Assembly: GCA_036788295.1 (NCBI GenBank)
Contig: DAIQNR010000005.1
Location: forward strand, 7,402 to 71,401
From: Myxococcota bacterium
GTDB lineage: Bacteria; Myxococcota; Kuafuiibacteriia; Kuafuiibacteriales; Kuafuiibacteriaceae
Length of the DNA stretch: 64,000 nt
Direction of reading: 5' to 3'
Under the pieces are notes generated by a model. That model was not told the DNA's origin. It ran no database searches and saw only the letters and a list, made by a program, of their open reading frames with translations. Shown one piece after another: positions 1,707-20,652 of the stretch; within the stretch, counting starts at the first letter, position 1; every line of letters begins with the position of its first letter. Made by a program: the position numbers and the translations under genes.

Positions 1707-2698
1707 CCTTCCCCTACGCGGCCGAGCAGCCGGGGGTTGCAGCCGGGGAGCCCCGCGAGCGCTCGATGCAGCTCCGGCGGGTGGGAAGGAGCCGGTCCGA
1801 GGCCGAGAAGGCGGGGCGCCACCGCGATGCCGAGCAGCGCGACCGCGGCCCGACGGATCTTTTCCCCCCCGCTCACGACGGTGCGGCCCCCCATCGGGTC
1901 GCCGCCCGCCCTCGTCAGCTTGTGGCCAATGGCCCGATACACCCGGCTCGCGACCAAGATCGCGACTCGAGGTCGAAACGGGATGTACCGCAGCCCCTGA
2001 TCGCCGCTTCGATAGTAGCGGTCGGCCAGGCGAACGACGTCGCCCACCACCTCGGCCAGGGCCCGCCTTCTCCCCTCGTCGGTCAGGAGCCGGCCCTGAA
2101 CCAAATCATCGGGGGACAGGCCTCGGTCGGCGAGCCGGGAGGTGGGCAGATACACCCGGCCCAGCCGCGCGTCCTCGGCCACGTCCCGGCAGATGTTGGT
2201 CAGCTGCATCGCCACGCCGAGGTCCACCGCGAACGGCGAAGCCTCCGCCGACCGAACCCCGATGATCGGGCACATCAGCAGCCCTACGGTGCCTGCGACC
2301 CGGTACCCGTACCGGATCAGCGCGTCGTCGTCGGGGACCCTAACCTCTCCGAGGTCGGACGCCACCCCCGCGAGCAGCTCGGCGGCGTGGGCCGGCTCGA
2401 TCCCCCGGCGATGCGCCACTTCGAGGAACGCGCCCACCACCGGGCCGGCCGCTGTCCGCCCGAACAGCTCGTCGTCGAGCCTCGCCACCGCCTCCAAACC
2501 GGCCGCGGGATCGGGGGCCTCATCGGCGGCGTCATCGGCGAATCGGCAGAAGGTGTACACCACGGCGGCGTCGGCGCGGTCCGCAGCGGGGAGAAACCGA
2601 GCCGCAAACGAAAAGCTCTTCGAGCCGGCGCCGAGCACCGCGTGGAAATCGGGGAGGACCGGCGCCTCCAACGAGACGAGCGCGCTGGCTTCGCTCAC
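1703..2698 (-). CDS. crtB: phytoene synthase (CrtB). Likely GTG start at 2698 overlapping the crtI stop; the ORF stays open to 2950.
   Basis: Squalene/phytoene synthase motifs (…GAGSKSFSFAARFLP…AVVYTFCRFADDAADE…, second Asp-rich region …NICRDVAEDARLGRVYLP…). Confidence 0.85.
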   Translation of the reverse strand: MSEASALVSLEAPVLPDFHAVLGAGSKSFSFAARFLPAADRADAAVVYTFCRFADDAADEAPDPAAGLEAVARLDDELFGRTAAGPVVGAFLEVAHRRGIEPAHAAELLAGVASDLGEVRVPDDDALIRYGYRVAGTVGLLMCPIIGVRSAEASPFAVDLGVAMQLTNICRDVAEDARLGRVYLPTSRLADRGLSPDDLVQGRLLTDEGRRRALAEVVGDVVRLADRYYRSGDQGLRYIPFRPRVAILVASRVYRAIGHKLTRAGGDPMGGRTVVSGGEKIRRAAVALLGIAVAPRLLGLGPAPSHPPELHRALAGLPGCNPRLLGRVGEG

Positions 2699-4233: not shown

Positions 4234-5312
4234 CGCTTCGCCTCCATCAAGTCTCGAATGGGAGCCAGGGAGCGCTCGACGAGTCCGAGCGCCACCTCCC
4301 TGAGTCCAGCCTCCGCCGCGAGCAGCGGTGACTCCCGAACGCCTTCTTCGAGCTCGCGAATCCGGCCGATGACCGCGTCGACCGTGCCTCGGCTCTCGAA
4401 GCGCTCCGCGACCCGCTCTACGTCGCGGGCGCTCGTCTCCTCGCGCCCCTTCGCCAGCAGGGCCACGAGCCACTTTTCGTCCTCCGGGCAACGGCGCAGG
4501 TGCTCGGCCACGAGCGCGCTCACCCGGCCCTCTCGGACGTCACCGCCCGGCTCTCCGCGGCCCTTGTCGCCGTAGAGGTCGAGGACGTCGTCCTGGATCT
4601 GAAACAGGAGGCCGACCGGCCGAAACGCGTCGGCGAGCGCTTCCGCGACCTCCGGGGGCCTCCCAGCGAGAAGCGCCGCCCCGTGCACCGGGAGCACCAT
4701 CAGCGCCGAGGTCTTGCCCGCCGAGGCCTCCACGTACGAGTTCCAGTCCCACTGGCCGCTCTCGAGCAAGCACATCTCCAGCGATTGTCCCCGTACGGTG
4801 TCTTCGGCCCGGCGCGCGACCGCCCGGGCGAGCTGCCAGCGGGTCGCGTCGTCGCAGTCCAAGTGTTCCAGGGCGAGGTACGGCAGCATCAGGAGCAGGT
4901 CGCCGGCGTTGATCGCCTGCGAACGGCCGTGCCTGACCCACACCGTGAAGTGGCCGCGCCGGACCGGATCGCTGTCCTGCAGGTCGTCGTGCACGAGGCT
5001 CGCGTTGTGGAGGAGCTCGCATGCGGCCGCCCAGGCCACCGCGCTGCCCGCCGGCGCCCCGAGGGCGTCGAGGCTCGAGAGCGCGAGCTTCGCCCGCAGC
5101 CGCTTCCCCCCGGTGAACAGGTGCTCCTGCACGATCGCGCCGAGACGCTCGAATCGCCGACCGGCGGCCAGCTTCAGCATCAGCGCCTTGATTTCGGCCA
5201 GACGCGCGTCGGCGTCGATCGTGTCCTCCCCAGAGGAGGCGCCGCGGCTTTCGCGCAGGTCGTGCGGGCGTCCGGGCGGCGGGGCTCCGGGGTCGGTGCT
5301 CAACGAACTCAT
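4230..5312 (-). CDS. crtE: geranylgeranyl diphosphate synthase (CrtE, polyprenyl synthetase)
   Basis: First and second Asp-rich motifs (LVHDDLQDSD; IQDDVLDLYGD) typical of trans-IPPS. Confidence 0.8.
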   Translation of the reverse strand: MSSLSTDPGAPPPGRPHDLRESRGASSGEDTIDADARLAEIKALMLKLAAGRRFERLGAIVQEHLFTGGKRLRAKLALSSLDALGAPAGSAVAWAAACELLHNASLVHDDLQDSDPVRRGHFTVWVRHGRSQAINAGDLLLMLPYLALEHLDCDDATRWQLARAVARRAEDTVRGQSLEMCLLESGQWDWNSYVEASAGKTSALMVLPVHGAALLAGRPPEVAEALADAFRPVGLLFQIQDDVLDLYGDKGRGEPGGDVREGRVSALVAEHLRRCPEDEKWLVALLAKGREETSARDVERVAERFESRGTVDAVIGRIRELEEGVRESPLLAAEAGLREVALGLVERSLAPIRDLMEAKR

Positions 5313-5475: not shown

Positions 5476-6696
5476 TCAGCGCCACGGCCACAGGGCCGAC
5501 CAGAGGATCGGGCCGCGGGGACCGAGTCCGGCCCCGACGAGGCGCCGCCGAAGATCCCAATCCGCCGCCGCGAAGACGCCGAGCATGGCCGCCCTCACCG
5601 CCGAAGGCGAAGCGGTCCCCGACAGATAGCCAGTCCACAGCGGGTCCGGCAGCGAGAAGAACGCGGTGAAGAAGCGCTGGAGCTGGGCCGTGTCGAGCCC
5701 GAGCAAGACTTCCGAGCCAAACCGGAACAAGTCGTGGGCCACCCGCTCGTCCCTCGACCACACCGCCGCCCACGCCCGCGCCGACCGGGCGTCCCGGTCC
5801 TCGCCGGACTCGAGCCCCTCGGCGACCGCAGCAGCGAGGCGGGGAGCCGTGCGGAGCACGCGCGCGAGCAGGTAGCCGCTCGCCGGGTGTACCTGGCGAG
5901 CCGCTCCGCCAAAACCCACCACCGGCTGCACCGCCGGCGGCGGCGGCCCCCCCATGGGAATGAAGCAACGCTCGACTTCGAGCACCCGCCCCACCGAGAC
6001 CCCGAGACGCCCGAGGCGAGACTGCAGCCGGGCCTCGAGCTGCTCGATCGGTAGCCCTGGACGGGCGACGAGCGACGTCTCCTCGAAGAACACCACCCGT
6101 TCGTCTTCGGGGAGGACATAGAGAAAGCTCGGGACGCGCGCGGCCTCCGTGGAGCGGTCGGGCGGCCGAAAATCCATGAGCACAGCCTCGCCCTCGGGAA
6201 AACGGTGCCCGCGCTCGAGCTCGGCCCGGATCCCGTAGGCAACTTGCCACCCTGGCGCGGGCCCGGGCCGATGGCGGAGCAGCCGGCTCTCATGGCCCGA
6301 AGCGTCGATCACCAGGTCGGCGCCCAGGGTTCCATCGCTCGTGCGCACCCAAAAGCGGTCGCCCTCGGGCTCCACCGCATCCGCCACCCCAACGACGCGC
6401 ACCGCGGAGGAGGCGTCGTCGAGCAGCCGCTCTCGCAGCCGGTCGTTCGCGACTCGTCCGTACGCCCGCGCGAAGGCCCGCTCCGCCGTATCGGAGCCGT
6501 GCACACGAACCCGAGGCCAGGTGCGCTCGAGCACCGACTCGAAGCCGGACACTTCGTCGACCCAAACTCCGTAGCCGTTGCGAAATGGGGCTTCGGGCTC
6601 CGGCGCCACCAGCGTCACCGCGAGACCGCGGCGGCACAGCGCGCCCGCCGCCGCCCACCCCGCCGGACCGGCTCCGATGACCAGCACCTCCGCCAC
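5476..6696 (-). CDS. lycopene cyclase, CrtL/CrtY family (FAD-dependent). Start set at GTG 6696 just before the Rossmann motif VAEVLVIGAGPAGW; the ORF is open to 7032.
   Basis: Motifs VLVIGAGPAGWAAAG, FLYVLP, FGGAARQVHPASGY match lycopene beta-cyclase (CrtL type). Confidence 0.75.
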   Translation of the reverse strand: MAEVLVIGAGPAGWAAAGALCRRGLAVTLVAPEPEAPFRNGYGVWVDEVSGFESVLERTWPRVRVHGSDTAERAFARAYGRVANDRLRERLLDDASSAVRVVGVADAVEPEGDRFWVRTSDGTLGADLVIDASGHESRLLRHRPGPAPGWQVAYGIRAELERGHRFPEGEAVLMDFRPPDRSTEAARVPSFLYVLPEDERVVFFEETSLVARPGLPIEQLEARLQSRLGRLGVSVGRVLEVERCFIPMGGPPPPAVQPVVGFGGAARQVHPASGYLLARVLRTAPRLAAAVAEGLESGEDRDARSARAWAAVWSRDERVAHDLFRFGSEVLLGLDTAQLQRFFTAFFSLPDPLWTGYLSGTASPSAVRAAMLGVFAAADWDLRRRLVGAGLGPRGPILWSALWPWR

Positions 6697-6883: not shown

Positions 6884-8020
6884 ATGAACGAACCGGGCAA
6901 AACGAGCACCATGATGTCGCTCGGCGATCCCTCGCGAGGGGATGTGGACGAAGCGGTGCTCGACGCGCCCGGGGGGTTCGCGTGGTGGTATGTGGACACC
7001 ATCGATGAGCACGGCGACGGCGCGGTGATCATCTGGTCCTGGGGTTTGCCCTTCCTCCCCGGCTATCTGTCCGGGGTCCGCGCCGGACGGGGGGATGCGG
7101 CGCGGGACCGCCCGAGCCTGAACGTGGCCCTGTACCGCGGGGGTCGCCGCCACTTCTACCTGCTTCAGACGTACGCGCCAGGCGAGGCCGAGCTGCTGGG
7201 CGACGGACGGTTCCGTTTCGGTCGCACCCGGATCGAGACTTCCTCTTCAGGGACGGTGCAGATCGACCTCGACTGCGATCTCTTCCGCACCAGCGAAAAA
7301 CTGACCGGACGTTTCGTCGTGGAGGGCCCACGAGCGCGGCTCGCCCCTGGCCTGTCGCCGAGCGACGATCGCAACCATCGCTGGACCCCGGTGCTCGGTC
7401 CGGCTCGGGCGCGGGCCGTGCTCGAGGTGGGGAGCGAGACGGTGCGCATCGACGGCCCCGCCTACCACGACCGAAACGAGGGCACGCAGCCGTTCGACCA
7501 GCTCGGAATCGACCACTGGTCATGGGGACGGCTCGTGACCGCGACCGAGACCTCCATCTGGTACGTCAACCACGCGCTCGACGGGCCCCCGATGGCGTGG
7601 GGCGTGCGCCTCGACGAGTCCGGGATCGTGCACCTCGCCGCCGAGCTCGAGCCCCGGTTCGAGCGACCCCGTAGCGGCCCATTCGGGCTTCGCACCTGGG
7701 ATCGCATACGGCTGCTCGACGCCAGCGGGTCCGAGTGGATCGCCGCCGACACCGGGCCGCGGGTGGACGACGGCCCATTCTATGCCCGAACGTTGAGCTC
7801 GGTCCGGTCCAGCGGGAGGGAGGGTCCCGGCCTCGGGGAGTGGATCGTGCCCCACCGGATCGACCTCTCCGTGCACCGGCCACTGGTGCGGATGGCGGTG
7901 CACAACGCGAGCGGTCCGAACTCGATTTGGCTTCCCCTCTTCAGCGGCCCGAAGGCCGGCCGGCTCGCCCGACTGCTCGGGCTCAAAAGGCGCCGAAACC
8001 TCGGTGAGACCGCCGCATGA
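6884..8020 (+). CDS. crtC: carotenoid 1,2-hydratase (hydroxyneurosporene synthase, CrtC)
   Basis: CrtC-family motifs GGFAWWYVD, PAYHDRNEG, HWSWGR, GPFYARTL. ATG at 6884 inside the longer open frame 6578-8020. Confidence 0.8.
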   Translation: MNEPGKTSTMMSLGDPSRGDVDEAVLDAPGGFAWWYVDTIDEHGDGAVIIWSWGLPFLPGYLSGVRAGRGDAARDRPSLNVALYRGGRRHFYLLQTYAPGEAELLGDGRFRFGRTRIETSSSGTVQIDLDCDLFRTSEKLTGRFVVEGPRARLAPGLSPSDDRNHRWTPVLGPARARAVLEVGSETVRIDGPAYHDRNEGTQPFDQLGIDHWSWGRLVTATETSIWYVNHALDGPPMAWGVRLDESGIVHLAAELEPRFERPRSGPFGLRTWDRIRLLDASGSEWIAADTGPRVDDGPFYARTLSSVRSSGREGPGLGEWIVPHRIDLSVHRPLVRMAVHNASGPNSIWLPLFSGPKAGRLARLLGLKRRRNLGETAA

Positions 8021-9150
8021 GCGCGAATTGGATCGTGGCCGTGCTCCCGCTGACCGTGTTCGCGGTGGCGCTCGTCAACCTCTTCCTCTGGCCACGAGGG
8101 CGACCGGGAACCCAGCTTCCCGGGACGCTTTCCGTGCTCATCCCGGCGAGAGACGAGGCGGGGCGCATCGAGCGCACGGTTCGGGCCGCGCTCGCCAGCA
8201 CCCACCCGGTGGCCGAGGTCCTCGTCTACGACGACGGCTCCAAAGACGCGACGCCCGAAATCCTGGCCGAGATCGCCGCTCAGGACCGGCGCTTGACGGT
8301 GCTCGTGGGCGGCGGTCTCCCGGACGGCTGGATCGGGAAGGCCCACGCTTGCCACCGCTTGGCCGAGGCAGCTTCCGGTGAGTACCTCTGCTTTCTCGAC
8401 GCGGACGTCGTCCTTGCTCCCCGGGGGCTCGAGCACTTGGCGGACGTGTTCGACCGGCTCGACGCCTCCGTGGTGACCGCGGTGCCGAGGCAGGAGGCCG
8501 GTACCTGGTTCGAGCGCCTCGTGCTGCCCCTGCTCCATCTCACCTATGTATCCTGGCTGCCCATGCCTCTCATCTGGCGCTCGAAGGATCCCCGGTTCTT
8601 GGCCGCGAACGGCCAGCTGCTCGCCCTGCGCGCGGACGCCTACCGCCGCTTTGGAGGTTACGAGTCCGTCCGCTCCGAGGTCGTGGACGACATGGCGTTC
8701 TGCCGAGCGGCCAAACGCGCCGGGCTGCGGGTCGTCTTCGCCGACGGCGCGTCGATGGCGACGTGCCGCATGTATTGCTCGGCCCGCGAGGTCTGGGAAG
8801 GTTTCTCGAAGAACCTGTACGAGGGGGTCGGGGCTCGTCCGGACGCCCTGCTGCTCGCCCTGGCGCTCAACGTGGGCGCCTTCCTGCTCCCGTGGGTCCT
8901 CCTTGCCGCAGCGATCTCGGACCCAGCCTGGCTCGCCCCAGCCGCGGTGGGCGTCATCGCCAACGTGAGCCAGCGGGGGCTGCTCGCCTGGCGGCACCGG
9001 CAGCCGTGGTCATCGCTGCTGCTTCATCCCTTGTCCATCTTGGCCCTGGTGGCGATCGCGGTGAACTCGTGGCGCTGGCAGGCTTCGGGCTCCATTTGCT
9101 GGCGAGGAAGGACGTACGCTCGTCGAGCGGAGCGGGGGGTGTCGGGATGA
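8017..9150 (+). CDS. family-2 glycosyltransferase, putative carotenoid glycosyltransferase (CruC/CrtQ-like), membrane-anchored
   Basis: GT2 signature LSVLIPARDEAGRIERTV…VLVYDDGSKDATPEIL plus C-terminal TM helices. ATGA overlap with the crtC stop and with the crtD start. Confidence 0.7.
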   Translation: MSANWIVAVLPLTVFAVALVNLFLWPRGRPGTQLPGTLSVLIPARDEAGRIERTVRAALASTHPVAEVLVYDDGSKDATPEILAEIAAQDRRLTVLVGGGLPDGWIGKAHACHRLAEAASGEYLCFLDADVVLAPRGLEHLADVFDRLDASVVTAVPRQEAGTWFERLVLPLLHLTYVSWLPMPLIWRSKDPRFLAANGQLLALRADAYRRFGGYESVRSEVVDDMAFCRAAKRAGLRVVFADGASMATCRMYCSAREVWEGFSKNLYEGVGARPDALLLALALNVGAFLLPWVLLAAAISDPAWLAPAAVGVIANVSQRGLLAWRHRQPWSSLLLHPLSILALVAIAVNSWRWQASGSICWRGRTYARRAERGVSG

Positions 9151-10637
9151 GCCGAGTCGTGGTCATCGGAGCGGGCGTCGGCGGGCTCTGCGCCGCCATC
9201 GAGCTTGCGTCCCAGGGGGTCGAGGTCCTCGTGCTCGAAGCTCGGGGAGCCCCGGGCGGCAAGGCCGGCGTCGGGAGCTTCGACGGCGTGGAGTTCGACA
9301 CCGGCCCGAGCGTCCTCACGCTGCCCGAGATCTTCGATCAGGTGCTGAAGAGCGCCGGCACCAGGCTCGAAGACGAGCTGACCCTCATCCGGCCGGAGCC
9401 AGCGTTTCGCTATCTGTATCCCGATGGCACTGCGCTCGACGTGCACCATGAGATCGGGGCGACGCTCGATTCGGTGAACGGCACGCTCGGGGCAGAGGCC
9501 CGGCTCGAGCTCGAGCGGTTCATGGTCTACGCCGGCCGCATCTGGTGGGCGAGCGCCGACACCTTCGTGTTCGGCGACGCCCCGACCGTCGGCGCGGTGC
9601 TGAAGTTCGGTTTGCGCGGTCTGGGTCAGCTCTTCGCGATCGATGCCGGTCGCTCGATGGCCCGCGCCATCGACGCGAAGATTCGAAGCCCCCACCTTCG
9701 GGACCTCCTCCTTCGATACGCCACCTACAACGGCTCCGACCCCTATCGAGCACCGGCGACGCTGAACTGCATCGCTCACGTCGAGCTCGCGCTCGGGGGC
9801 TTCGGGATCGAAGGCGGCATCCACCGGCTGGCGACGGCGCTCGCCCGGGTGGCGGAGCGATCCGGGGCCGAGATCCAATACGACGCGCCCGCGAGCGAGA
9901 TCGTGGTCGAGCGTTCCCGGGCGGTGGCGGTCCGGACGCGGGGCGGCCCACCGATCCGGTGCGACGCGGTCGTCGCGAACGCCGACCCGGAGCACGTCTT
10001 TCGCCATCTCCTGCCCGAGGAGGTGGGCGCCGCCCGAAGGAGCCGCGCGACCCCCTCGACGTCGGGCTGGACCGCGGTGATCCGGGCCAGGAGAGACCCG
10101 GCTCGCGCCGCCCACACCGTGCTGTTCCCGGCGACGTACCGAGAGGAGTTCGCCGACTTGTTCGAGCGGGAGCGCCCCCCGGAGGACCCGACCGTGTACC
10201 TCTGCGACCAAGCGGTCTGCCACCGGCGCACAGGGTGGGCGGATGCGGTGCCTCTGTTCGCGATGGCCAACGCCCCGGCCGAACCGGAGGACGGTCGGAC
10301 CCCCGACGAGGTGTGGAATGGGCTCGAGGAGAGGATCAGGGCCCGCCTGGCCGCTGGCGCGCTCGTGGACGCCGGCGATCCGATCGTGTGGAAGCGCACC
10401 CCGACCGGGCTCGCCGAGACCTTCCCCGGCAGCCGTGGCGCCCTCTACGGGGCGGCATCGAACACGCCGCTCGCGGCGTTTCGGCGCCCTCCGAACCGTC
10501 TGAGCAACCCCCGGGGCCTCTACCTCGCGAGCGGGGGCGCGCACCCGGGCGGAGGCTTGCCCCTGTGCGCGTCGAGCGGACGAGCGGCGGCCAGGGCCGC
10601 GCTCGCCGACCTCGGCGTCGAAAACGGAGCAGCATGA
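9147..10637 (+). CDS. crtD: phytoene-desaturase-family carotenoid desaturase, putative CrtD (3,4-desaturase of hydroxylated acyclic ends)
   Basis: MSRVVVIGAGVGGLCAAIELA… Rossmann start and CrtI-family body. Placement after crtC and the GT supports the CrtD call; specificity is inferred. Confidence 0.65.
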   Translation: MSRVVVIGAGVGGLCAAIELASQGVEVLVLEARGAPGGKAGVGSFDGVEFDTGPSVLTLPEIFDQVLKSAGTRLEDELTLIRPEPAFRYLYPDGTALDVHHEIGATLDSVNGTLGAEARLELERFMVYAGRIWWASADTFVFGDAPTVGAVLKFGLRGLGQLFAIDAGRSMARAIDAKIRSPHLRDLLLRYATYNGSDPYRAPATLNCIAHVELALGGFGIEGGIHRLATALARVAERSGAEIQYDAPASEIVVERSRAVAVRTRGGPPIRCDAVVANADPEHVFRHLLPEEVGAARRSRATPSTSGWTAVIRARRDPARAAHTVLFPATYREEFADLFERERPPEDPTVYLCDQAVCHRRTGWADAVPLFAMANAPAEPEDGRTPDEVWNGLEERIRARLAAGALVDAGDPIVWKRTPTGLAETFPGSRGALYGAASNTPLAAFRRPPNRLSNPRGLYLASGGAHPGGGLPLCASSGRAAARAALADLGVENGAA

Positions 10638-11380
10638 ACCCCTCCTTCCTGATCGCGCTCGCCATGAGCCCAGCCCCGGACGCCCCGGAGTGGCCCGATT
10701 TGCAGGGTCACTGGGCCTTCTCTCAGGTCACGACCGCGGTGTCGAAGGCGCCGCTGCTCGGCGAGGTCACGACGCAGACCCGCGCGCTGGGCACCGTCCG
10801 GATCAAGCAGAGCGGGGAGAAGCTCGATCTTCTCGAGACCCTGTGCACGCTCGAGACGAGCGATCCGTCCCCGATGGTGAAGACCCGCTACCCCGACGCG
10901 TTCATCGCCGCCCTGTCCGGCAACCGTCGCTCCGCCCGGTTGAAGACCGGTCCGGACGGCTTTCGCTTCGTGCAGGACAAGACCTGGACCGTCCACGGGG
11001 CGGAGATCCTGAACCAGGGCGACGCCCTGCCCACCGACGCTTCGGACCCCCGGGTGCGCGACGACGACGGGGACGGCGCGCCGGGGCTGACCGTGCAGGT
11101 CAGCGGCATCGTGAGCGGGCAGCTGCGGGTGGTCACCCGGGGCTGGACCGCTCTGGATGCTCGAGTCCACGAAGCCGACCGGGTACAAGGGCGGGTGCAG
11201 TGGGGGACCGAGCAGCGGGTGCTCGGCGTGACCCACTGGCTGCTCGACCACCAGCCCCGGCTCCGGCCCCACCCCGACCAGGACCGCTCCCACTTCGCTC
11301 TGGTGAGGCTCCCGGAAGCCACCACCTGCGCTACCGTGGTCGGCGCGGCCGACCGTCTGTTTGCCGAAGCCCGACCCTAG
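10634..11380 (+). CDS. hypothetical protein, translationally coupled to crtD (ATGA); possible N-terminal signal-like segment (FLIALAMSPAPDAP)
   Basis: In frame with the long ORF 9545-11380; ATG 10634 overlaps the crtD stop. No recognisable family. Confidence 0.45.
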   Translation: MNPSFLIALAMSPAPDAPEWPDLQGHWAFSQVTTAVSKAPLLGEVTTQTRALGTVRIKQSGEKLDLLETLCTLETSDPSPMVKTRYPDAFIAALSGNRRSARLKTGPDGFRFVQDKTWTVHGAEILNQGDALPTDASDPRVRDDDGDGAPGLTVQVSGIVSGQLRVVTRGWTALDARVHEADRVQGRVQWGTEQRVLGVTHWLLDHQPRLRPHPDQDRSHFALVRLPEATTCATVVGAADRLFAEARP

Positions 11381-11483: not shown

Positions 11484-13583
11484 GTGATCAGCGACATCAG
11501 CATCGTCAGGAACATTGGGATCTCCGCCCACATCGACAGCGGGAAGACCACCCTGACCGAGCGGATCCTCTTCTACACCAACCGGGTCCACGCCATTCAC
11601 GACGTGAAGGGCAAAGATGGCGTCGGCGCCAAGATGGACTCCATGGAGCTCGAGCGGGAGCGCGGGATCACCATCGCGAGCGCCGCCACCTACTGCGAGT
11701 GGAAGAAGCACCACATCAACATCATCGACACCCCCGGGCACGTGGACTTCACGATCGAGGTCGAGCGCTCCCTGCGGGTGCTCGACGGGGCGATCCTCGT
11801 CCTGTGCTCGGTGGCCGGTGTCCAGTCCCAGTCCTACACGGTGGACCGCCAGATGAAGCGGTACAACGTGCCCCGGCTCGCCTTCGTGAACAAGTGCGAC
11901 CGCGTGGGCGCCAACCCGGTCCGCGTCCGAAACCAGCTCCGAGAGAAGCTGGGACACAACGCGGTGATGATGCAAATCCCCATCGGTCTCGAGGACAAGC
12001 ACGTCGGGGTGGTGGACCTCATCGAGATGAAGGCCCTCTACAACGATGGCCCGAACGGGGAGAAGATCATCGAAAAGGAGATCCCTGCCGAGCTCCTGGA
12101 CGAGGCCGCGGCGTACCGCGAGGAGATGCTCGACTCGGTCTCGATGTTCTCCGAAGAGCTCATGGAGGCCATGCTCGAGGAGAACGTCACCCCCGAGCTC
12201 ATCCGGAAGGCGGTTCGTGACGGGACGATCTCCCTTCAGCTCACCCCGGTCTTCATGGGTTCCGCGTTCAAGAACAAGTCCGTGCAGCCGCTGCTCGACG
12301 CGGTCACGCTGTACCTGCCGAACCCGGCCGAAGTGAGAAACGAGGCGATCGACCTGACGTCGGGCGCGGACGAGTCCCGGGTGGTCTTGAAGACCGATCC
12401 CGACGCTCCGTTCGCCGGACTCGCCTTCAAGCTCGAGGACGGCCGGTACGGTCAGCTCACCTACGTGCGCATCTACCAGGGGAAGGTGGCTCGCGATGAC
12501 TTCATCGTGAACACCCGCACCGGCAAGAAGACGAAGGTGGCCCGCCTGGTCCGCATGCACTCGGACGACATGGAAGACATCCAGGCTGCGTCGGCGGGCG
12601 ACATCGTGGCCGTCTTCGGGCTCGATTGCGCATCGGGCGATACCTTCACCGACGGGACGCTCAAGATCGCGATGACCTCGATCTTCGTCCCCGACCCGGT
12701 GATCTCGCTGTCGATCAAGCCGAAGGACTCGAGGTCCGAGCAGAACCTCAGCAAGGCGCTGAACCGATTCACGAAGGAAGACCCCACGTTCCGGGCCGGA
12801 GTGGACCCGGAGTCGGGGGAGACGGTCATCCAGGGCATGGGGGAGCTTCAGCTCGACGTGTACATCGAGCGGATGAAGCGGGAGTACAGCTGCATCGTGG
12901 AGACCTCGGCGCCCCAGGTGGCGTACCGAGAGACCTTCACCCAGCGGGCGGACTTCAACTACACCCACAAGAAGCAGACCGGCGGCTCCGGACAGTACGG
13001 AAAGATCGCGGGCTTCCTCGAGCCCATCCCCGAGGAAGAGGCCACGGAGTTCGAGTTCGTCGATGACACGGTCGGCGGCGTCATCCCGAAGCAGTTCATC
13101 CCGTCGGTGGAGAAGGGCTTCAAGTCCATGCTCGCCAAGGGCCGACTCATCGGGTTCCCCGTGGTCAACGTGCGCGTGGTGATCAACGATGGCGGCTCCC
13201 ACGCGGTCGACTCGTCGGACAACGCGTTTCAGGAGGCCGCCCGGGGAGCGTGGCGAGCGACCTTCGACAAGGCGCGCCCGCGGATCCTCGAGCCGGTGAT
13301 GAAAGTCGTCGTCGAGGGACCCTCCGAGCACGCGGGCAACGTGCTGCAGACGATCATGCAGCGGCGCGGCATCATCAACGGCTCGCAGGAGGAAGACGGC
13401 ATGACCCGCACCGAGGCGGAGGTGCCGCTCGCGGAGATGTTCGGCTACGCGACCGTCCTGCGGTCGGCTACCCAGGGCAAGGCCGAGTTCTCGATGGAGT
13501 TCTCGCGGTACATGCTCACCCCCTCGACCGTCGAGGAGGAGCTGGTGGCGAAGGCACGGGAAAAAGAAGCCAGCAAGAAGTGA
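11484..13583 (+). CDS. elongation factor G paralog (EF-G2 class)
   Basis: Full five-domain EF-G ([18 protein letters not shown]…[22 protein letters not shown]…NKCDR). GTG start. Distinct from the canonical fusA in the str operon at 46642-48738. Confidence 0.85.
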
Positions 13584-13654: not shown

Positions 13655-14962
13655 ATGTACCGCAAAGAAGTCAACGAACGGAGCCCCCTGCGGATCTTCG
13701 AGCGCTCCATCCATGGGGGCCTCGGCGCCGGAAACCTCGGGGTCGTCATGGCCCGGGCCGGGGTGGGGAAGACCGCTTTCCTCGTTCAGGTCGGCCTCGA
13801 CGACCTCCTTCGGGAAAAGCAGGTCCTTCATGTGGCGGTAGGGCAGACCGTCGAGCACGTCCAGGCTTGGTACTATGCGCTCTTCGACGACCTCGCCCAG
13901 CTCGTGGGGCTAGAAAACCGCGCCGCCATTCGGGCGGAGGTTGGTCGTCGGTCGGTGATCCAGGCCTATCCGGGCGAGACCCACGTCGACCCGGACCAGC
14001 TCGAGAAGGCCCTCGACCTGTACGGTCAGCACGCCTCGTTTCGGCCGGCGGCGATCTTGCTCGACGGCTGGGACTGGAGCGGGCCGGCCGAGACCAGAGC
14101 GGCGGAGCTGACCAGGCTGAAGGAGATCGCCGGGCGAGCTGGCGCGGAGCTGTGGGTGGCCGCCCAGACCAAGCGCATGGACAGCCCCGAGCATCCGGTG
14201 CAGGTGCCGCCCCCCTGCTCCGACTTCGCTTCACTCATCGACGTCGCCGTGTTCCTCGAGCCGCACGCCGGGGCGCACGTCTCGGTCCGCATTCTGAAGG
14301 ACCACGACAACCCGAACGTGCCCGAGATCCACCTCGCGCTCGACCCCGACACCATGCGGTTGATGGTCGAGGAAGAAGAGTTCGACACGCGGACCCCGGT
14401 GGTTCTTCCACCGTCGCAGTACACGGTGCTGTCGGGCGGCTGCAAAGGCGCAGAAGCCGAGTTCGGGGCCTGTGCGGAGCGGTGGGGCCTTCAGGAGGTC
14501 AACTACTCCTTCGCCGGCCGACCGGTGGTCCGGAGCCGGGGGCTGGTGGAGCTGACCGAGACCGAGCTCAAGCAAGGGGGCGTGAACCCGAGCTACATCG
14601 AAGCCCAGCTCCACCGGTCGTTCGCGAAAACGCCCCAGTTCCAGCGCATGCTTCAGACCATCTGGCACCAGGTGGCGACCGCCGGCCAGGTCTTCGTGGT
14701 GGGGCTCATCCTGCCCGACGGGACGGTCAACGGGGGCACCGGCTGGGCGGCCGAGCTTGGCCGTCACTTCAAGAAGGAGACCCACGTCTACGACCAGGAT
14801 CAGCGGAGCTGGTTCACCTGGCGGGACGGGGCCTGGGTCGACGAAGATCGGCCCAAGATCACCCGGACCCGCTTCACCGGCACGGGGACCCGGTTTCTGT
14901 CCGAAGAGGGGCGGCAGGCCATTCACGACCTGTTCTCCGACTCCTTTGGACCGAGGCACTGA
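13655..14962 (+). CDS. RecA/KaiC/DnaB-like P-loop ATPase fused to a C-terminal DprA/Smf-like (SLOG) Rossmann domain; uncharacterised
   Basis: N-terminus: HGGLGAGNLGVVMARAGVGKTAFLVQVGLDDLL (RecA-superfamily Walker A context). C-terminus: YTVLSGGCKGAEAEFGACAERWGLQEV…GQVFVVGLILPDGTVNGGTGWAAELGRHF resembling the DprA Rossmann domain (VVSGLARGIDAAAH…RSGSLITARLALELGR). Confidence 0.55.
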   Translation: MYRKEVNERSPLRIFERSIHGGLGAGNLGVVMARAGVGKTAFLVQVGLDDLLREKQVLHVAVGQTVEHVQAWYYALFDDLAQLVGLENRAAIRAEVGRRSVIQAYPGETHVDPDQLEKALDLYGQHASFRPAAILLDGWDWSGPAETRAAELTRLKEIAGRAGAELWVAAQTKRMDSPEHPVQVPPPCSDFASLIDVAVFLEPHAGAHVSVRILKDHDNPNVPEIHLALDPDTMRLMVEEEEFDTRTPVVLPPSQYTVLSGGCKGAEAEFGACAERWGLQEVNYSFAGRPVVRSRGLVELTETELKQGGVNPSYIEAQLHRSFAKTPQFQRMLQTIWHQVATAGQVFVVGLILPDGTVNGGTGWAAELGRHFKKETHVYDQDQRSWFTWRDGAWVDEDRPKITRTRFTGTGTRFLSEEGRQAIHDLFSDSFGPRH

Positions 14963-15087
14963 GGACCAGGGACAAAAGCACCGCCCCCCTGGCGTCGTCG
15001 CCGCTTCGCTCCCGTCCGTCCCAGACGACCGCCCGCCGTTCCGTCGTTGACTCCACGTCCGCCGGCGCGGACGCTGCCGATGCCGCA

Positions 15088-15945
15088 ATGAGTCGAAGCT
15101 ACCAGGGCCCAGCGAGCGTGGGCGGGGCCTACGATACTTGGACCGCCGACGGTGTGCTCGAACGGTACTGGGGCGAGCACATCCATCACGGCTTCTACCC
15201 CGAGGGCCGGATCAACGGGGTCGATTTCCGGGCGGCCAAGCGCGCGCTCGTCGAGCGACTGCTGTCCTGGGCCGACCCCGGCCCGGTGCAGTCGGTGCTC
15301 GACGTCGGCTGCGGGATCGGGGGTAGCTCCCGGCTCCTGCATGAGCGGCTCGACGCCGAGGTCGTCGGGGTGACCTTGAGTGCGGCGCAGGTCGGCCGGG
15401 CCCGGCAGCTGACCGACGCCGCCGCGCCGATTCGCTTCGAGCAAGCGGACGCGCTCCACCTGCCCTTCCCCGACGATCGTTTCGACCTCGTTTGGTCGTG
15501 CGAGTCGGGGGAGCACATGCCGGACAAGCGCACCTTCTTCGCCGAGCTCGTGCGGGTCCTCAAGCCGGGCGGCACCCTGATCCTGGCCACTTGGTGCGTC
15601 CGGCCTGGAGAGCTGTCCCATCGAGAGCGGGCCCGTCTCGACGCAATCTACCGAGACTGGACGCTGCCGTTCTTCATACCGGTCGAGGAGTACGCCCAGA
15701 TGGCGCTGCTCGATGGCCGGCTTCGGGCGGTGCGGACGGACGATTGGAGCAGGCAGACCAGCCCGACCTGGCGCCACCAGCTCGTGCTCGGGGCCCGGGA
15801 CGTGTTCTGGCTGTTGAGGCAGGGCCCAGGGGTCATAGGGCGCAGCCTTCGCGATGCCCGCACCGCGCTGGCGATGATCCGCGGCTTCGCGGAGGGCACG
15901 GTCCGGTACGGGCTGCTGCGGGGCACGAAGGAGCCTCCGCGGTGA
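15088..15945 (+). CDS. gamma-tocopherol methyltransferase-family SAM methyltransferase (MPBQ/MSBQ-MT or gamma-TMT; VTE3/VTE4, Sll0418/Slr0089-like)
   Basis: WGEHIHHGFY, VLDVGCGIGGSSR, GVTLSAAQ, DLVWSCESGEHMPDK, LATWC. Closely parallels plant gamma-TMT (WGDHMHHGFY…VVDVGCGIGGSSR…DLVWSMESGEHMPDK). Confidence 0.8.
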   Translation: MSRSYQGPASVGGAYDTWTADGVLERYWGEHIHHGFYPEGRINGVDFRAAKRALVERLLSWADPGPVQSVLDVGCGIGGSSRLLHERLDAEVVGVTLSAAQVGRARQLTDAAAPIRFEQADALHLPFPDDRFDLVWSCESGEHMPDKRTFFAELVRVLKPGGTLILATWCVRPGELSHRERARLDAIYRDWTLPFFIPVEEYAQMALLDGRLRAVRTDDWSRQTSPTWRHQLVLGARDVFWLLRQGPGVIGRSLRDARTALAMIRGFAEGTVRYGLLRGTKEPPR

Positions 15946-16919
15946 AGCGCGCCCTGCTCGGACGACTGCACCCGGAGGGGTTTCACGGCCGGGGCGCCGG
16001 GTCGCCGTTTTTCGAAGGGTGGTACCTCAAGCTCGCGACCGCCGACGAAACGAGAGCGGTCGCGCTGATCCCAGGGATCTTTCGCGGCCGCCAACCAGCG
16101 TCCCACCACGCCTTCGTGCAGGTCGTGGATGAAGGCGTGCGGTACCATCGCTTCTCGGCCGGTCAGCTCGACGGGGCCGAAGACCGCTTCGACGTCCGCA
16201 TCGGTCCGAATCGCTTTCACGAACACGGGCTCTCGGTCGATCTCGACCGCTGCCGCGGGGACCTGCGGTTCGGTCCGATGACCCCTTGGCCGGTGTCCAT
16301 CCCTTCGCCCGGGGCGATGGGTTGGTTCGCTTGGGTCCCGTTCATGCAATGTTACCACGCGGTCCCGAGCTTTGGTCACGAGCTTTACGGCTACCTCGAG
16401 CTCGATGGACAAAGCATCGACTTCACCGGGGGCCGCGGCTACCTCGAGAAGGATTGGGGCCGGAGTTTTCCGAAGACGTGGGTATGGATGCAGGGTCAGC
16501 ACTTCAACGAAGACTTCTGCGTCGCAGTGTCCCTCGCCGACGTCCCTTGGCTCGGCCGGTCGTTTCCCGGTCTGCTCGCCGCCATGCATTTTTCGTCGCC
16601 CCCCCCCGAGCTCGATCCGTTTCTGTTTTTGACGACCTACGGCGGCGCTCGGGTCAGGGGCCTGGCGCGGACTCCCGACGGCATCGATCTTCGGGTCGGC
16701 GGCGGCGGCTTCGAGCTGGAGCTCAACGCTCGAGGCGGCGCCCCGGTTTCCATTCACATCCCATCGGAGGACTCGATGGATCAGGTCGTCGAGGAGCGCC
16801 TCGGCGCGACGCTCTCGGTGCGCTTGTCGAGACGAGGGCGGACCGTTCTCGAGACGCGAGGCCAACTCGCCGCCTACGAAGCCCACGGCGACATCGACCG
16901 GCTCGGGGGAAAGTCATGA
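15942..16919 (+). CDS. tocopherol cyclase (VTE1/Slr1737 family)
   Basis: N-terminal SPFFEGWYLKL (plant VTE1: KFFEGWYFRV) and core YLEKDWGRSFPKTWVWMQGQHF (VTE1: [22 protein letters not shown]). GTG start overlaps the MT1 stop (GTGA). Confidence 0.85.
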   Translation: MKRALLGRLHPEGFHGRGAGSPFFEGWYLKLATADETRAVALIPGIFRGRQPASHHAFVQVVDEGVRYHRFSAGQLDGAEDRFDVRIGPNRFHEHGLSVDLDRCRGDLRFGPMTPWPVSIPSPGAMGWFAWVPFMQCYHAVPSFGHELYGYLELDGQSIDFTGGRGYLEKDWGRSFPKTWVWMQGQHFNEDFCVAVSLADVPWLGRSFPGLLAAMHFSSPPPELDPFLFLTTYGGARVRGLARTPDGIDLRVGGGGFELELNARGGAPVSIHIPSEDSMDQVVEERLGATLSVRLSRRGRTVLETRGQLAAYEAHGDIDRLGGKS

Positions 16920-17767
16920 CGAGGGAGGATCTCGGGGAGCGCATCCGGCAGCTGTACGACCGCACGACGGGCGGATGGGTCGATGTGTGGGGCGAGCACC
17001 TGCACCACGGTCACTACGGCTCGGACGGGTCGGCGAAAGTGGACCACCAGCAGGCGCAGGTGGACATGGTCGACCGCCTGCTCGACTGGGCCGGGCCGGT
17101 CGAAGGACCGACGAAGCTCGTGCTCGACGCCGGCTGCGGGGTGGGAGGCAGCGCCCGGCACCTCGCGACCCGGCTCGGGGCCGAGGTCGAGGGGCTCACC
17201 CTGTCCCCGGTGCAGGCCGGCATCGCCCGCCGTCTGTCCGCCGGCCGGCCCGACGTCCGGTTCACAGTGGCCGACGCGACCCGGGCGCCCTTCGAGACGG
17301 GGAGCTTCGACCTCGTTTGGGCGCTCGAGAGCGCCGAGCACATGCCCGACAAAGGCGCGTTTCTTCGCGAGTGCAGCCGGGTTCTGCGGCCGGGCGGGCG
17401 CCTCGTCCTCGCGACTTGGTGCCACCGCCCGGAGCCCCCTCCACTCCATCGCCGCGACCGGCTCCAGCTGGACACGATCAGCTGGTCCTACGGCCGCTCG
17501 CTGACCTGGGTGTCCGAGTCCACCTATTCGACCGCGCTCGCCGAGGGTCCGTGGACGCAGGCCCGCACCGAGGACTGGTCGGCCGCCGTCGCCCCGTTCT
17601 GGGCGGCGGTGCTCCGATCGGTGGTGACGAAGAGAGGCCTTCTCGCCGTGGCCCGCGGAGGGCGAAGGATGGTCGCCGGCGCGTACGGCGGTTTGTGGAT
17701 GAGGGGGGCGCTCGCCACCGGGCTCGTGCGCTACGTCGTCGCCACCGCAGTCCGGGGGGATGCATGA
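16916..17767 (+). CDS. second gamma-tocopherol methyltransferase-family methyltransferase
   Basis: WGEHLHHGHY, LVLDAGCGVGGSARHL, GLTLSPVQAG, DLVWALESAEHMPDK, LATWCHR, DWSAAVAPFWAAV (plant gamma-TMT: DWSENVAPFWPAV). ATGA overlap with the cyclase stop. Confidence 0.85.
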   Translation: MTREDLGERIRQLYDRTTGGWVDVWGEHLHHGHYGSDGSAKVDHQQAQVDMVDRLLDWAGPVEGPTKLVLDAGCGVGGSARHLATRLGAEVEGLTLSPVQAGIARRLSAGRPDVRFTVADATRAPFETGSFDLVWALESAEHMPDKGAFLRECSRVLRPGGRLVLATWCHRPEPPPLHRRDRLQLDTISWSYGRSLTWVSESTYSTALAEGPWTQARTEDWSAAVAPFWAAVLRSVVTKRGLLAVARGGRRMVAGAYGGLWMRGALATGLVRYVVATAVRGDA

Positions 17768-18660
17768 TCCGCACCCTCTGGGACTTTTCTCGCCCCCACA
17801 CCATCATCGGCTCGACCCTCGCCGTCGTCGTCTTCTATCTCATCGCGGCCAGGGACGCGGGGCGACACGACCTCTTCCTCTTGCTCGTCAGCTATGGGGC
17901 CGCGCTCGCGGTCAACCTGTACATCGTCGGGCTCAACCAGCTCACCGACGTCGCCATCGACCGGGTGAACAAACCCCATCTCCCCCTGCCCTCCGGCCGG
18001 CTGTCGGCCCACGACGCCGCGCGCATCGTCGCCGTCGCCGCCGTCCTCGGGCTGGGGCTCGCCGCTGCCGGGGGCCCTTGGCTCTTCTTTACCATCGGGA
18101 CCGTGTTCGTCGTGGGCTCCTGCTACTCGCTCCCTCCGCTGCGCCTCAAACGAAAACCGGGATGGGCAGCGCTGTCGATCGTCCTGTCCCGCGGCGTCAT
18201 CGGCAACGTCGGGCTGTGGCTGACGTTCACCGTGGGCCTGTCCGGGGTCGCCCGGCTGCCGGCCCACGTCCTCGCCTTCGTCGCGTTCATGGTGGGCTTC
18301 ATGACCGTCATCGCCTTGCTCAAGGACGTGCCCGACATCGAAGGGGACCGCATCCACGAGATCCGAACCTTCAGCGTGCGCTTTGGCCCAAAGCGCGTGC
18401 TCGCCAGCTCGGTGGGGATCCTCGGCGTGGCGTACGCGGGAATGGCCAGCCTCGGGGCGTTCGGGGTCGAGGGGCTCGACCCGCCGGTGACGGCGCTCAC
18501 CCACCTCGCGCTGCTCGCGGTCCTGCTTCGGTTCGCGCGGCAGGCACAGCCAGAGTCGAAAGCGTCGATGACCCGCTTCTATCGACAAGTGTGGACGCTC
18601 TATTACCTCGAGTTCGGCGCCTATCTTTTCGCGTGCCTGGGGACCGGCCGCTGGATCTGA
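17764..18660 (+). CDS. homogentisate prenyltransferase (UbiA superfamily, HPT/VTE2-like)
   Basis: WDFSRPHTIIGS, NQLTDVAIDRVNKPHLPLPSG, KDVPDIEGDR, YRQVWTLYYLEF, matching Arabidopsis VTE2 (WRFLRPHTIRGT; NQIYDIGIDKVNKPYLP; KDLPDVEGDR; YRFIWNLFYAEY). ATGA overlap with the MT2 stop. Confidence 0.85.
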   Translation: MIRTLWDFSRPHTIIGSTLAVVVFYLIAARDAGRHDLFLLLVSYGAALAVNLYIVGLNQLTDVAIDRVNKPHLPLPSGRLSAHDAARIVAVAAVLGLGLAAAGGPWLFFTIGTVFVVGSCYSLPPLRLKRKPGWAALSIVLSRGVIGNVGLWLTFTVGLSGVARLPAHVLAFVAFMVGFMTVIALLKDVPDIEGDRIHEIRTFSVRFGPKRVLASSVGILGVAYAGMASLGAFGVEGLDPPVTALTHLALLAVLLRFARQAQPESKASMTRFYRQVWTLYYLEFGAYLFACLGTGRWI

Positions 18661-18708
18661 ACCACGAGGGGCCTGGTTCGCGAGCGTGCTTTTCGAAGCG
18701 CTCTTTGC

Positions 18709-20652
18709 TCAGCCGGGGTCGAGGATCGTCTCGTCGGGGTCAAGAGGAGCGCGAGGGGTCGCGGAACCCGGGGGAGCCCGGTCGCGTCCAGCGTCGCCCG
18801 GACCGGACTTTCGGCCGGGGCTCGGCGTCGCCGACACCGCCTCGACGCCGCTGAGCGTGACATCGACCTCCTCCACCGCCTTTGCCCGGCGACCGGCGAG
18901 CACCCAGGCGCAAGCGACCGCGCCGAACCCAGCCCCGACCGCCGGACCGAGGCCCCCCGCCGCCCCGGCGAGCGCGGCGAGCGGCGGAGTCAGCAGCGCG
19001 GGCCACACCGGCCGGCGCTCGGCCATCGACCGCCGCGCCCCGGCCAGCGCCTCGGGAAACCCGGGGAGGGCGGGCTCCCATATCCGCGGCGGCCCTTCGT
19101 TCAGCTCGAGCCCGATGAGCAGCGGCAGCACCCGAACCGCGAGCCCCCGGGCCGGTTCGGGGCCGTCCGGATGGCAGAGAACGACGGTCTTCTTGCCGCC
19201 GAGCTCGGCCGCAGCCTCGAGCCCCGACTTGCGAAGCACCGCGGTGCGGAGCGCCTCGTCGGCGCCCGGCGGGACCGATGCAAAGAGCGCCCGGGCGACC
19301 GCCCACGCCTCCGGCAGAGGCTCGACGTCCACGCCGAGCGCGGCGACCGGCCCGCCTTCGGGGGTCGAGAGCAAGAGCACCCGCCGCCCTTGGTCCTCGA
19401 GAAAGGACACCGTGCCCTCGAGCGACCGAGGCAGCTTCAGCCGGCTGACCCGCTCGAGCGCGGCCCGGGACCCGAGGTGCCACCTGGCCCCCTGGACCGT
19501 CCCCATCCACACGCCCCCCCGGTGGGAGAACGCCGCGCCCCGAAACCCGTCGGTCCCCCGCTCGCGGGCGGCCCGGCGAATGGCCTCTGCGTGGGGGTCG
19601 TCGGTCTCGGACACGAGCGCCGCCGCCACCCCGAGCGCGTGGGCCTTCGGGGTCTCGTCGAAGACCACCATCTCCACCGTCCCCGGGCCGACGAGCAGCG
19701 CCGGGTCGAGCTGCCACCGCGCCGCTTTGAGCAGCTCCTCGAGATCCGGAGGTCGGCGCACGATCACCCCGGCCCCGGTGAGGACCTCGAGCGCGGACCG
19801 GCGGCGCCGCTGCGCCTCGACCAGAAACAGCCCGACCGGCAAACTGAGCAAGAGACCCGCCGCCTCCGTGGCCCAGACCGCCGGATCGGGGGCCAGACCG
19901 AGCCCCCATCGAAGGGCGGCAGCGATCCCGATCGAGACCCCCGCCGCCGCCGCGACCCGGCCGCCGCCGCGGTGCTTGGCGCCCACCCGATCGATCGCCT
20001 CGTCCCGCAGGCGAAGAAGGCTGTCCCTCGGCGCCCGCGCCACCTCTACCTCGACCTCGACCTCGGGGACCCACCCCTGGAACACCGGACCGCCCCCCGC
20101 GACCTCGATCGGGCGGGCGAGGCCGATCGCTTGGCCGTCGAAGCGCACCGGCGCACCCGGGGCGAGGACCCCATCCGCGGGAACCGTCGTCCCCGCTGCG
20201 ACCCGCACCCGATCCCCAGGGCCCAACTCGGCCTCGGGGACCGCGACCTCCCGTCCTCGGGACCGAACCAGCCGAGCCGAGCCGGACTCCGTCCCTCGGC
20301 GGGCTCGAGCCCGCCAAGCGGCCGCATCGAGGACCGCCGACAGCGCCGCCGCCCCCGCCACCGCCTCGAGCCCGACCGAGGTGGTCGCAGACGAGAACAC
20401 TCCGGCCACCGCGAGCGCGAAGCCGAGGCCAGCCGCGACCGCCAGCGAGCCGTGGGGACCCGGGGCCCGCTTCGCCCGCCACCCGAGCCACGACGCGGCG
20501 AGAAAGGACACCGCCGCCGCGACCGCAGGGCCGCCGAGGCCAGCGCGGACGGCCACCGCAGCGGCGGCAGCGGCGGCGGCGAGCGCCAACGAGACGACGA
20601 GGCTCGTCCCCGTCCATGAGGCTCCCGATGAAGGCTCCGCCCTGACGCGCAT
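18709..20652 (-). CDS. degenerate P1B-type ATPase homolog (pseudo-ATPase or pseudogene). Actuator-like GDRVRVAAGTTVPADGVL and the phosphorylation-site region are retained but DKTGT is replaced by DETPK, CPC by LPV, and no TGES or GDGxND.
   Basis: Of the three overlapping >600-aa open frames at 18.7-20.7 kb, only this one shows domain-ordered similarity to heavy-metal P-type ATPases. Extremely Ala/Gly-rich. Confidence 0.45.
   Translation of the reverse strand: MRVRAEPSSGASWTGTSLVVSLALAAAAAAAAVAVRAGLGGPAVAAAVSFLAASWLGWRAKRAPGPHGSLAVAAGLGFALAVAGVFSSATTSVGLEAVAGAAALSAVLDAAAWRARARRGTESGSARLVRSRGREVAVPEAELGPGDRVRVAAGTTVPADGVLAPGAPVRFDGQAIGLARPIEVAGGGPVFQGWVPEVEVEVEVARAPRDSLLRLRDEAIDRVGAKHRGGGRVAAAAGVSIGIAAALRWGLGLAPDPAVWATEAAGLLLSLPVGLFLVEAQRRRRSALEVLTGAGVIVRRPPDLEELLKAARWQLDPALLVGPGTVEMVVFDETPKAHALGVAAALVSETDDPHAEAIRRAARERGTDGFRGAAFSHRGGVWMGTVQGARWHLGSRAALERVSRLKLPRSLEGTVSFLEDQGRRVLLLSTPEGGPVAALGVDVEPLPEAWAVARALFASVPPGADEALRTAVLRKSGLEAAAELGGKKTVVLCHPDGPEPARGLAVRVLPLLIGLELNEGPPRIWEPALPGFPEALAGARRSMAERRPVWPALLTPPLAALAGAAGGLGPAVGAGFGAVACAWVLAGRRAKAVEEVDVTLSGVEAVSATPSPGRKSGPGDAGRDRAPPGSATPRAPLDPDETILDPG

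Follow-up and report, generated by a model that had tools for sequence, protein, structure and literature searches.

Reviews describe vitamin E as made only by photosynthetic organisms (PMC5745509, PMC9515888). Does that statement still hold in view of contig DAIQNR010000005.1, which comes from a Myxococcota bacterium and carries four overlapping genes that resemble those of the tocopherol pathway? We analyzed a 64-kb stretch of this contig (64,000 nucleotides, hereafter the window), in which the four genes lie at positions 15088 to 18660 on the + strand. An initial annotation had read them as a homogentisate prenyltransferase (HPT), an MPBQ/MSBQ-type methyltransferase (MPBQ-MT), a tocopherol cyclase, and a gamma-tocopherol methyltransferase (gamma-TMT), and by homology this core reading holds. 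We examined how the genes are built, which families they belong to, where they fall in phylogenies, and how far they are conserved across genomes, all of which could be observed directly. Taken together, we consider it probable that the four translationally coupled genes are one operon and that this operon makes a lipid antioxidant of the tocochromanol or vitamin E type, a prenylated chromanol derived from homogentisate.

Gene structure and enzyme families of the four genes

The four open reading frames are uninterrupted in translation from 15088 to 18660. The first (15088–15945, +, 285 aa), MT-A, encodes an S-adenosylmethionine (SAM)-dependent methyltransferase that is a candidate for the MPBQ/MSBQ-type step on 2-methyl-6-prenylbenzoquinol, and the second (15942–16919, +, 325 aa) encodes a short bacterial-type protein of the tocopherol cyclase family, the candidate chromanol-ring cyclase. 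These are followed by MT-B (16916–17767, +, 283 aa), a SAM-dependent methyltransferase of the gamma-TMT type, and by an HPT-like homogentisate prenyltransferase of the UbiA family (17764–18660, +, 298 aa). The overlaps through which the genes are coupled had been placed at GTGA 15942–15945, ATGA 16916–16919, and ATGA 17764–17767, and these coordinates are exact. In a public annotation, MT-A begins at GTG 15118, giving a protein of 275 aa; we kept ATG 15088 because relatives of 285 aa align across 100% of the longer form. The 125-bp gap between the preceding 435-aa gene and MT-A (14963–15087, +) is the presumed promoter site, and a scan of this intergenic region found no sigma-70-like consensus. 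Just 3′ of the HPT gene lies a weak terminator-like hairpin (18686–18701, + strand, hairpin scan), whose kind is no more frequent than expected from shuffled sequence, and beyond it a convergent gene (18709–20652, −).

All the motifs quoted in the initial annotation are present, but some that it gave for the two methyltransferases jointly sit in one alone. The cyclase contains FFEGWYLKL and YLEKDWGRSFPKTWVWMQ, and the prenyltransferase contains WDFSRPHTIIGS, NQLTDVAIDRVNKPHLPLPSG, KDVPDIEGDR, and YRQVWTLYYLEF. WGEHIHHGFY belongs to MT-A and WGEHLHHGHY to MT-B. VLDVGCGIGGSSR is found only in MT-A, where MT-B has VLDAGCGVGGSAR as its counterpart; DWSAAVAPFWAAV is found only in MT-B; and DLVWSCESGEHMPDK of MT-A corresponds to DLVWALESAEHMPDK of MT-B.

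We compared the four proteins with Synechocystis Slr0089 (gamma-TMT), Sll0418 (MPBQ-MT), and Slr1736 (HPT) and Arabidopsis VTE1, VTE2, VTE4, and HST, whose reference sequences were confirmed by exact database look-up, and with Slr1737, whose sequence was taken from the Synechocystis locus, where it directly follows slr1736. The prenyltransferase scores 312.1 bits against the NCBIfam homogentisate phytyltransferase equivalog NF009525 (cutoff 226), covering model positions 14–308 of 310, and 117.7 bits against the UbiA family PF01040. Both Asp-rich motifs, NQLTDVAID and KDVPDIEGD, are intact and are invariant in the homologue alignment. Among the characterized enzymes, Slr1736 is nearest (40% identity, 203 bits), followed by VTE2 (39%, 169 bits) and HST (34%, 132 bits), while the matches to chlorophyll synthase and DGGGP synthase reach only E 1e-10. 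The earlier description of this protein as near-superimposable on VTE2 was therefore too strong at 39% identity. Of the 80 positions at which Slr1736, VTE2, and HST all agree, it retains 61 (76%).

In a neighbor-joining tree built without an outgroup, and thus effectively unrooted, the cluster-linked Myxococcota HPTs group together with 100% support. Along with actinomycete and Solirubrobacteraceae sequences, they belong to a larger non-cyanobacterial group (82%), which connects to the cyanobacterial HPTs with 93% support, while the Calditrichota sequences, plant HPT, and HST lie outside. The phylogeny that had been proposed as a check on the assignment thus places the protein next to cyanobacterial HPTs and not with plant HST, in line with the equivalog match. 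This placement speaks against both a plastoquinone-type HST and a recent acquisition from cyanobacteria. The prenyltransferase would presumably use homogentisate as its acceptor.

The two methyltransferases were assigned to different steps. MT-B shares 45% identity and 224 bits with Slr0089 and scores 212 bits against VTE4 and 152 bits against Sll0418. It matches Methyltransf_11 at 84.5 bits, its glycine-rich SAM-binding motif VLDAGCGVGGSAR is present, and it carries DWSAAVAPFW, a motif found in gamma-TMTs. In neighbor-joining trees without an outgroup, MT-B is sister to the gamma-TMT clade with 95% bootstrap support in a smaller tree and 82% in a larger one. MT-A matches Methyltransf_11 and related Pfam families, and its closest relatives outside Myxococcota are JGI proteins named "MPBQ/MSBQ methyltransferase" and green-algal proteins at 40–46% identity, among them a Chlamydomonas entry named "cyanobacterial-type MPBQ/MSBQ methyltransferase". 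The larger tree unites MT-A with Sll0418 and the algal MPBQ-MTs at 87%. Because this tree puts MT-B with the gamma-TMTs and MT-A with the Sll0418 and algal enzymes, the predicted assignment of MT-B to the gamma-TMT step is supported and that of MT-A to the MPBQ-MT step is moderately supported, and both proteins fall on the sides expected for the pair that had been postulated. Counts of retained residues do not tell the two methyltransferase types apart. We also observed that the algal MPBQ/MSBQ methyltransferases (P0374, P0437, P0456, and others) are nearer to Myxococcota MT-A (40–46%) than Sll0418 is (39%), a pattern that is unexplained.

The cyclase passes the PF14249 profile check with 58.6 bits against a gathering cutoff of 26.6, over a best stretch that spans residues 82–196 only. 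Comparison of profiles with hhalign extends the relationship: the protein aligns with Slr1737 at 99.6% probability over 301 columns and with VTE1 at 99.0% over 298 columns, and on these alignments it is a full-length homologue of both verified cyclases. Twenty-six columns, including FFEGWY and YxEKxWGxxFPxxWxW, are invariant across the bacterial and the verified cyclases. An AlphaFold 2 (AF2) model (pLDDT 96, pTM 0.93) has an AttH/CrtC-like fold. We found no tocopherol cyclase structure in the PDB; the nearest solved structures to the model are the pericyclases CghA and Fsa2, AttH, and a CrtC-domain hydratase. The predicted fold, which also occurs in a hydratase acting on a prenyl C=C bond, would fit the accepted cyclase chemistry without proving it. 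The short bacterial cyclase-like family to which the protein belongs comprises 1745 clusters at E ≤ 1e-3, 1163 at E ≤ 1e-10, and 381 at E ≤ 1e-30.

Tocopherol-cyclase-like proteins of heterotrophs were noted in 2016 by Gruszka et al., who stated their function to be unknown (PMC4963081). They belong to the same PF14249 family as the cyclase described here and keep the YxEK(N/D)WG..FP..W.W region. Those homologues were isolated, without gene context, whereas the present cyclase is translationally coupled to an HPT and to two tocopherol-type methyltransferases, and this coupling gives it a testable substrate.

The tocopherol core of Synechocystis sp. PCC 6803 (Slr1736, Sll0418, Slr1737, and Slr0089) consists of the same four enzyme families, including the cyanobacterial-type MPBQ-MT and not plant VTE3. 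It differs from the Myxococcota set in several respects. All four Myxococcota genes lie in one overlapping operon, while those of Synechocystis are partially clustered; the Myxococcota cyclase is short (325 aa, with YLEKDWG) compared with Slr1737 (363 aa, with YAEKNWG); MT-A forms its own clade; and a route from chlorophyll-derived phytol is not evident in the window. Relationships to the plant enzymes run through VTE2 for the HPT, VTE4 for MT-B, and VTE1 for the cyclase, but VTE1 is a protein of 488 aa with long insertions, and HST is more distant from the HPT than VTE2 is. The plant MPBQ-MT step is carried out by VTE3, an unrelated UbiE-type enzyme.

Recurrence of the gene set and its chromosomal setting

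Four further Myxococcota assemblies, a 6.05-Mb ENA contig (ERZ26696514) and three metagenome-assembled genomes (MAGs), carry the cluster in the same order (MT-A, cyclase, MT-B, HPT). Across these clusters the proteins share 49–68% identity, and genome GC ranges from 51 to 71%. Because the same genes recur in the same order in four divergent assemblies, the cluster is not a chance arrangement. The genes downstream in the window, encoding a peptidase, LPP20, LpoB, and a trypsin-like protease and followed by rpoA/L17, are also common to three of the compared loci (L004, L011, and L012). The shared order and the shared downstream neighbors indicate vertical inheritance at one chromosomal site. In the same three loci, a glutaredoxin gene (75–81% identity between genomes) stands upstream of the cluster, directly so at 8783–9091 in L004 and at 1847–2110 in L011, and about 0.9 kb away at 6008–6256 in L012; it is absent from the present window. 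The glutaredoxin may be a redox partner or mere conserved synteny.

More distant genomes hold related sets. In a Calditrichaceae MAG (L059, 5952–10015), a cyclase, a UbiE-type methyltransferase, a gamma-TMT-type methyltransferase, and an HPT stand in a row. This is again a four-gene set, with the order cyclase, methyltransferase, methyltransferase, HPT, but its presumed MPBQ step falls to a different methyltransferase family, UbiE-type and not Sll0418-type. A Solirubrobacteraceae MAG (L045, 6828–10894) has a TetR regulator, a divergent PF14249 gene (7383–8495), and an HPT homologue within 4 kb, the PF14249 gene lying 1.5 kb upstream of the HPT; here the two are co-located, but the cyclase has diverged strongly and there is no methyltransferase gene next to them. 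In the cultured actinomycete Actinacidiphila oryziradicis, the HPT homologue stands alone. A metagenome scan for HPT returned mostly cyanobacterial loci and added little.

The phototroph genes had initially been described as scattered, which is not always so. In the Synechocystis locus (L091, 4001–6077), slr1736, encoding the HPT, and slr1737, encoding the cyclase, are adjacent, and in 27 cyanobacterial loci (among L019–L086) an Slr0089-type gamma-TMT gene lies directly upstream of the HPT gene on the same strand.

The base composition of the operon is native: the GC content (0.66–0.73) and GC3 (0.79–0.89) of the four genes are like those of the flanking genes. The same locus lies within a 144-kb contig (CAZDDJ010000006.1) of MAG GCA_964504175.1, and an identical locus was independently assembled from two further sequencing runs. 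A ribosomal-protein operon, recognized by gene size, gene order, and spot look-ups and not by a gene-by-gene scan, is found at about 33–50 kb of the window, and at the 90%-identity level its L14 clusters with proteins from Myxococcota MAGs. For the four operon proteins, too, the closest homologues are those of Myxococcota, Myxococcales, and Nannocystaceae MAGs.

Proposed product and competing explanations

The substrates, order of steps, and product that we infer are as follows. The UbiA enzyme would join homogentisate and a prenyl diphosphate with decarboxylation, giving a 2-methyl-6-prenylbenzoquinol, to which MT-A, as the MPBQ-MT-type enzyme, would add the 3-methyl group. The PF14249 protein would then protonate the first double bond of the side chain, so that the phenolic oxygen closes the chromanol ring, and MT-B, as the gamma-TMT-type enzyme, would methylate C-5 to give the alpha and beta forms. 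The role of the product would be to protect the membrane against lipid peroxidation and singlet oxygen.

As the initial annotation had noted, neither HPPD nor a geranylgeranyl reductase is encoded in the 64-kb window, and no phytol kinase was found there either. Tocopherols need a supply of saturated phytyl diphosphate, for which there is no gene within the 64-kb window, and tocotrienols do not. The Synechocystis HPT together with a tocopherol cyclase converts geranylgeranyl diphosphate (GGPP) and homogentisate to delta-tocotrienol (PMC12754398); since the HPT accepts GGPP and the cyclase gives delta-tocotrienol, tocotrienol-type products need no reductase. Because there is no geranylgeranyl reductase nearby and cyanobacterial HPT accepts GGPP, the likeliest product is probably a methylated chromanol of the tocotrienol type, with a side chain whose length is not readable from sequence. 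The window also lacks the photosynthesis genes bch, puf, and chl. Some Myxococcota carry photosynthesis gene clusters, in a paper that does not mention tocopherol (PMC10576062), and a non-phototrophic lifestyle of the host therefore cannot be judged from 64 kb.

Several observations weigh against the tocochromanol reading, and most of them concern the cyclase, which is its weakest link. Identity to Slr1737 is 24%, and the pairwise matches to VTE1 are short; the protein keeps 39% of the positions that are invariant between Slr1737 and VTE1, and the canonical Asn of YxEKNWG is replaced by Asp. The short PF14249 subfamily (about 380 clusters at E ≤ 1e-30) has no assayed member. In three inspected homologue loci outside Myxococcota (41–45% identity), the cyclase-like gene stands alone or beside a carotenoid gene, without HPT or methyltransferases, and because these homologues are unlinked to HPT, membership in PF14249 does not by itself fix the substrate. 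The likeness to VTE1 claimed at the outset thus stands as far as the FFEGWY motif and full-length homology go, and is qualified by the roughly 24% identity to Slr1737 and by a short subfamily whose sampled members are mostly unlinked to HPT. For MT-A, the pairwise scores are ambiguous (189 bits to Slr0089 and 188 bits to Sll0418), the smaller neighbor-joining tree shows it as a separate third lineage, and the trees that place it have no outgroup. Precursor supply counts on the same side, given the genes missing from the window, as does the host, an uncultured MAG whose product is a prediction from its genes.

Among these homologues, one with 44% identity to the cyclase abuts a PF04240 "carotenoid biosynthesis protein" gene (L008/L009, 8001–9835), which hints that some short-subfamily members act in carotenoid and not in quinol chemistry.

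In an alternative reading, the operon would make a methylated prenyl-benzoquinone or prenyl-quinol redox carrier, similar to plastoquinone or tocopherolquinone, with the PF14249 protein carrying out a hydration or another protonation-initiated isoprenoid reaction. The nearest solved folds would suit such a role, as they include a CrtC-domain hydratase and Diels-Alderases but no chromanol cyclase. So would the finding that most sampled subfamily members are unlinked to HPT, one of them being coupled to the PF04240 carotenoid gene, and the fact that HST, a plant relative of HPT, makes plastoquinone. The prenyltransferase is nearer to the cyanobacterial HPTs than to HST, however, and the cluster conserves a gamma-TMT-type enzyme, which acts on chromanols in known systems. 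In addition, HPT and PF14249 genes are linked in three phyla, and the motifs shared with the verified cyclases are intact. We regard a quinone carrier as an unlikely product.

Somewhat less likely still is a specialized meroterpenoid, a distant analogue of vitamin E built from another aromatic acceptor or with a short prenyl chain. Myxococcota and Actinomycetota are rich in secondary metabolism, HPT homologues occur alone in actinomycetes such as A. oryziradicis, and the sequence reveals neither the acceptor nor the chain length. Against such a product, no tailoring, transport, or regulatory partner is conserved with the four genes, which keep a housekeeping site near the ribosomal-protein operon, and the nearest characterized relatives of all four proteins belong to the tocopherol pathway.

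That the locus represents contamination or a recent transfer from cyanobacteria or algae, or a set of decaying remnants without function, is very improbable: the nearest characterized relatives are indeed cyanobacterial, or algal in the case of MT-A, but contamination and recent cyanobacterial transfer are rejected on composition (GC and GC3 like the flanking genes), on synteny across Myxococcota genomes of 51–71% GC, and on the deep branching of Myxococcota clades that share only 40–45% identity with cyanobacterial proteins, while the Myxococcota affiliation of the contig's L14, the identical locus from two other sequencing runs, and the intact open reading frames and catalytic motifs point the same way.

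Neighboring genes and a possible wider distribution of tocochromanol synthesis

The initial annotation had described the operon as embedded next to a carotenoid locus. Such a locus does lie upstream, in the order CarH-like MerR regulator, crtB, crtI, crtE-like gene, lycopene cyclase, crtC, glycosyltransferase, crtD, followed by an EF-G paralogue and the 435-aa gene. Its nearest gene ends 3.7 kb before the operon, however, with these last two, unrelated genes in between, and among the loci compared the neighborhood is unique to the present genome. Functional coupling of the operon to the carotenoid locus is unsupported, as crt genes lie upstream in the present genome alone and are separated from the operon by the EF-G paralogue and the 435-aa gene. 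The crtE-like gene (4230–5312, −; PF00348, 172 bits) encodes a short-chain polyprenyl diphosphate synthase that could be a source of GGPP for the operon. Its protein scores below every NCBIfam equivalog cutoff, so its chain length is not set by a model match. The FAD enzyme encoded at 5476–6687 was considered as a hidden geranylgeranyl reductase and ruled out, since it is a lycopene cyclase by TIGR01790 (294 bits against a cutoff of 209.5). The CarH-like MerR regulator (NF052513, 86 bits, below cutoff) ends the − strand crtE–crtI–crtB string at 2–5312 of the window, a layout that resembles the light-regulated carotenoid operon of Myxococcus.

Other genes around the operon were also inspected. 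A 248-aa open reading frame (10634–11380), whose start overlaps the end of crtD, looks conserved and has no family match. The EF-G-family gene between the carotenoid genes and the operon (11484–13583, 699 aa) is the second in the window, the canonical EF-G gene lying in the ribosomal operon at 46642–48738, and in the protein collection the paralogue has no cluster partner at 90% identity. The 435-aa open reading frame (13655–14962) looks conserved, with a faint AAA-like signal only and no family match. We considered the flanking 435-aa, 647-aa, and 531-aa genes as parts of the system, but their family matches were uninformative; in the other loci no equivalent of the 435-aa or 647-aa gene flanks the cluster, and an equivalent of the 531-aa gene does so in L011 only. 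Toward the far end of the window, a flagellin gene (57274–58998, −) lies beside genes for a NeuB-type sialic/legionaminic acid synthase (58779–60086) and a Maf/MptE-like flagellin glycosyltransferase (61308–63899). Flagella are unusual for a genome that is otherwise placed in Myxococcota.

With respect to novelty, the cluster had been presented as undescribed. A full-text literature search, in which most subscription journals were not covered, found no paper on a tocochromanol gene cluster outside cyanobacteria, and an earlier description is possible. The genes as such are already labeled, in that annotation pipelines name such MAG genes homogentisate phytyltransferase, tocopherol cyclase, and MPBQ/MSBQ methyltransferase.

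The four-gene set suggests that an antioxidant pathway regarded as confined to phototrophs also exists in other bacteria. A broader proposal, which we put forward tentatively and consider doubtful at present, is that tocochromanol synthesis is older and more widespread among bacteria. Chromanols would then be made by Myxococcota, Calditrichota, and perhaps some Actinomycetota, the short PF14249 family of heterotrophs would be prenylquinol cyclases, and soil and sediment bacteria would be an unrecognized source of tocopherol-derived and chroman lipid biomarkers.

The 3.6-kb operon, together with the analogous Calditrichota set, makes the statement that only phototrophs synthesize vitamin E directly testable. 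If the operon is active, it would bear on the origin of the pathway, as the Myxococcota HPTs branch deeply, as sisters of the cyanobacterial enzymes, and do not result from a recent transfer, and it would provide a compact, plastid-independent gene set for microbial tocotrienol production. Heterotrophs of soil and sediment would then contribute tocochromanols, with likely consequences for nutrition webs and for how tocopherol-derived biomarkers are interpreted.

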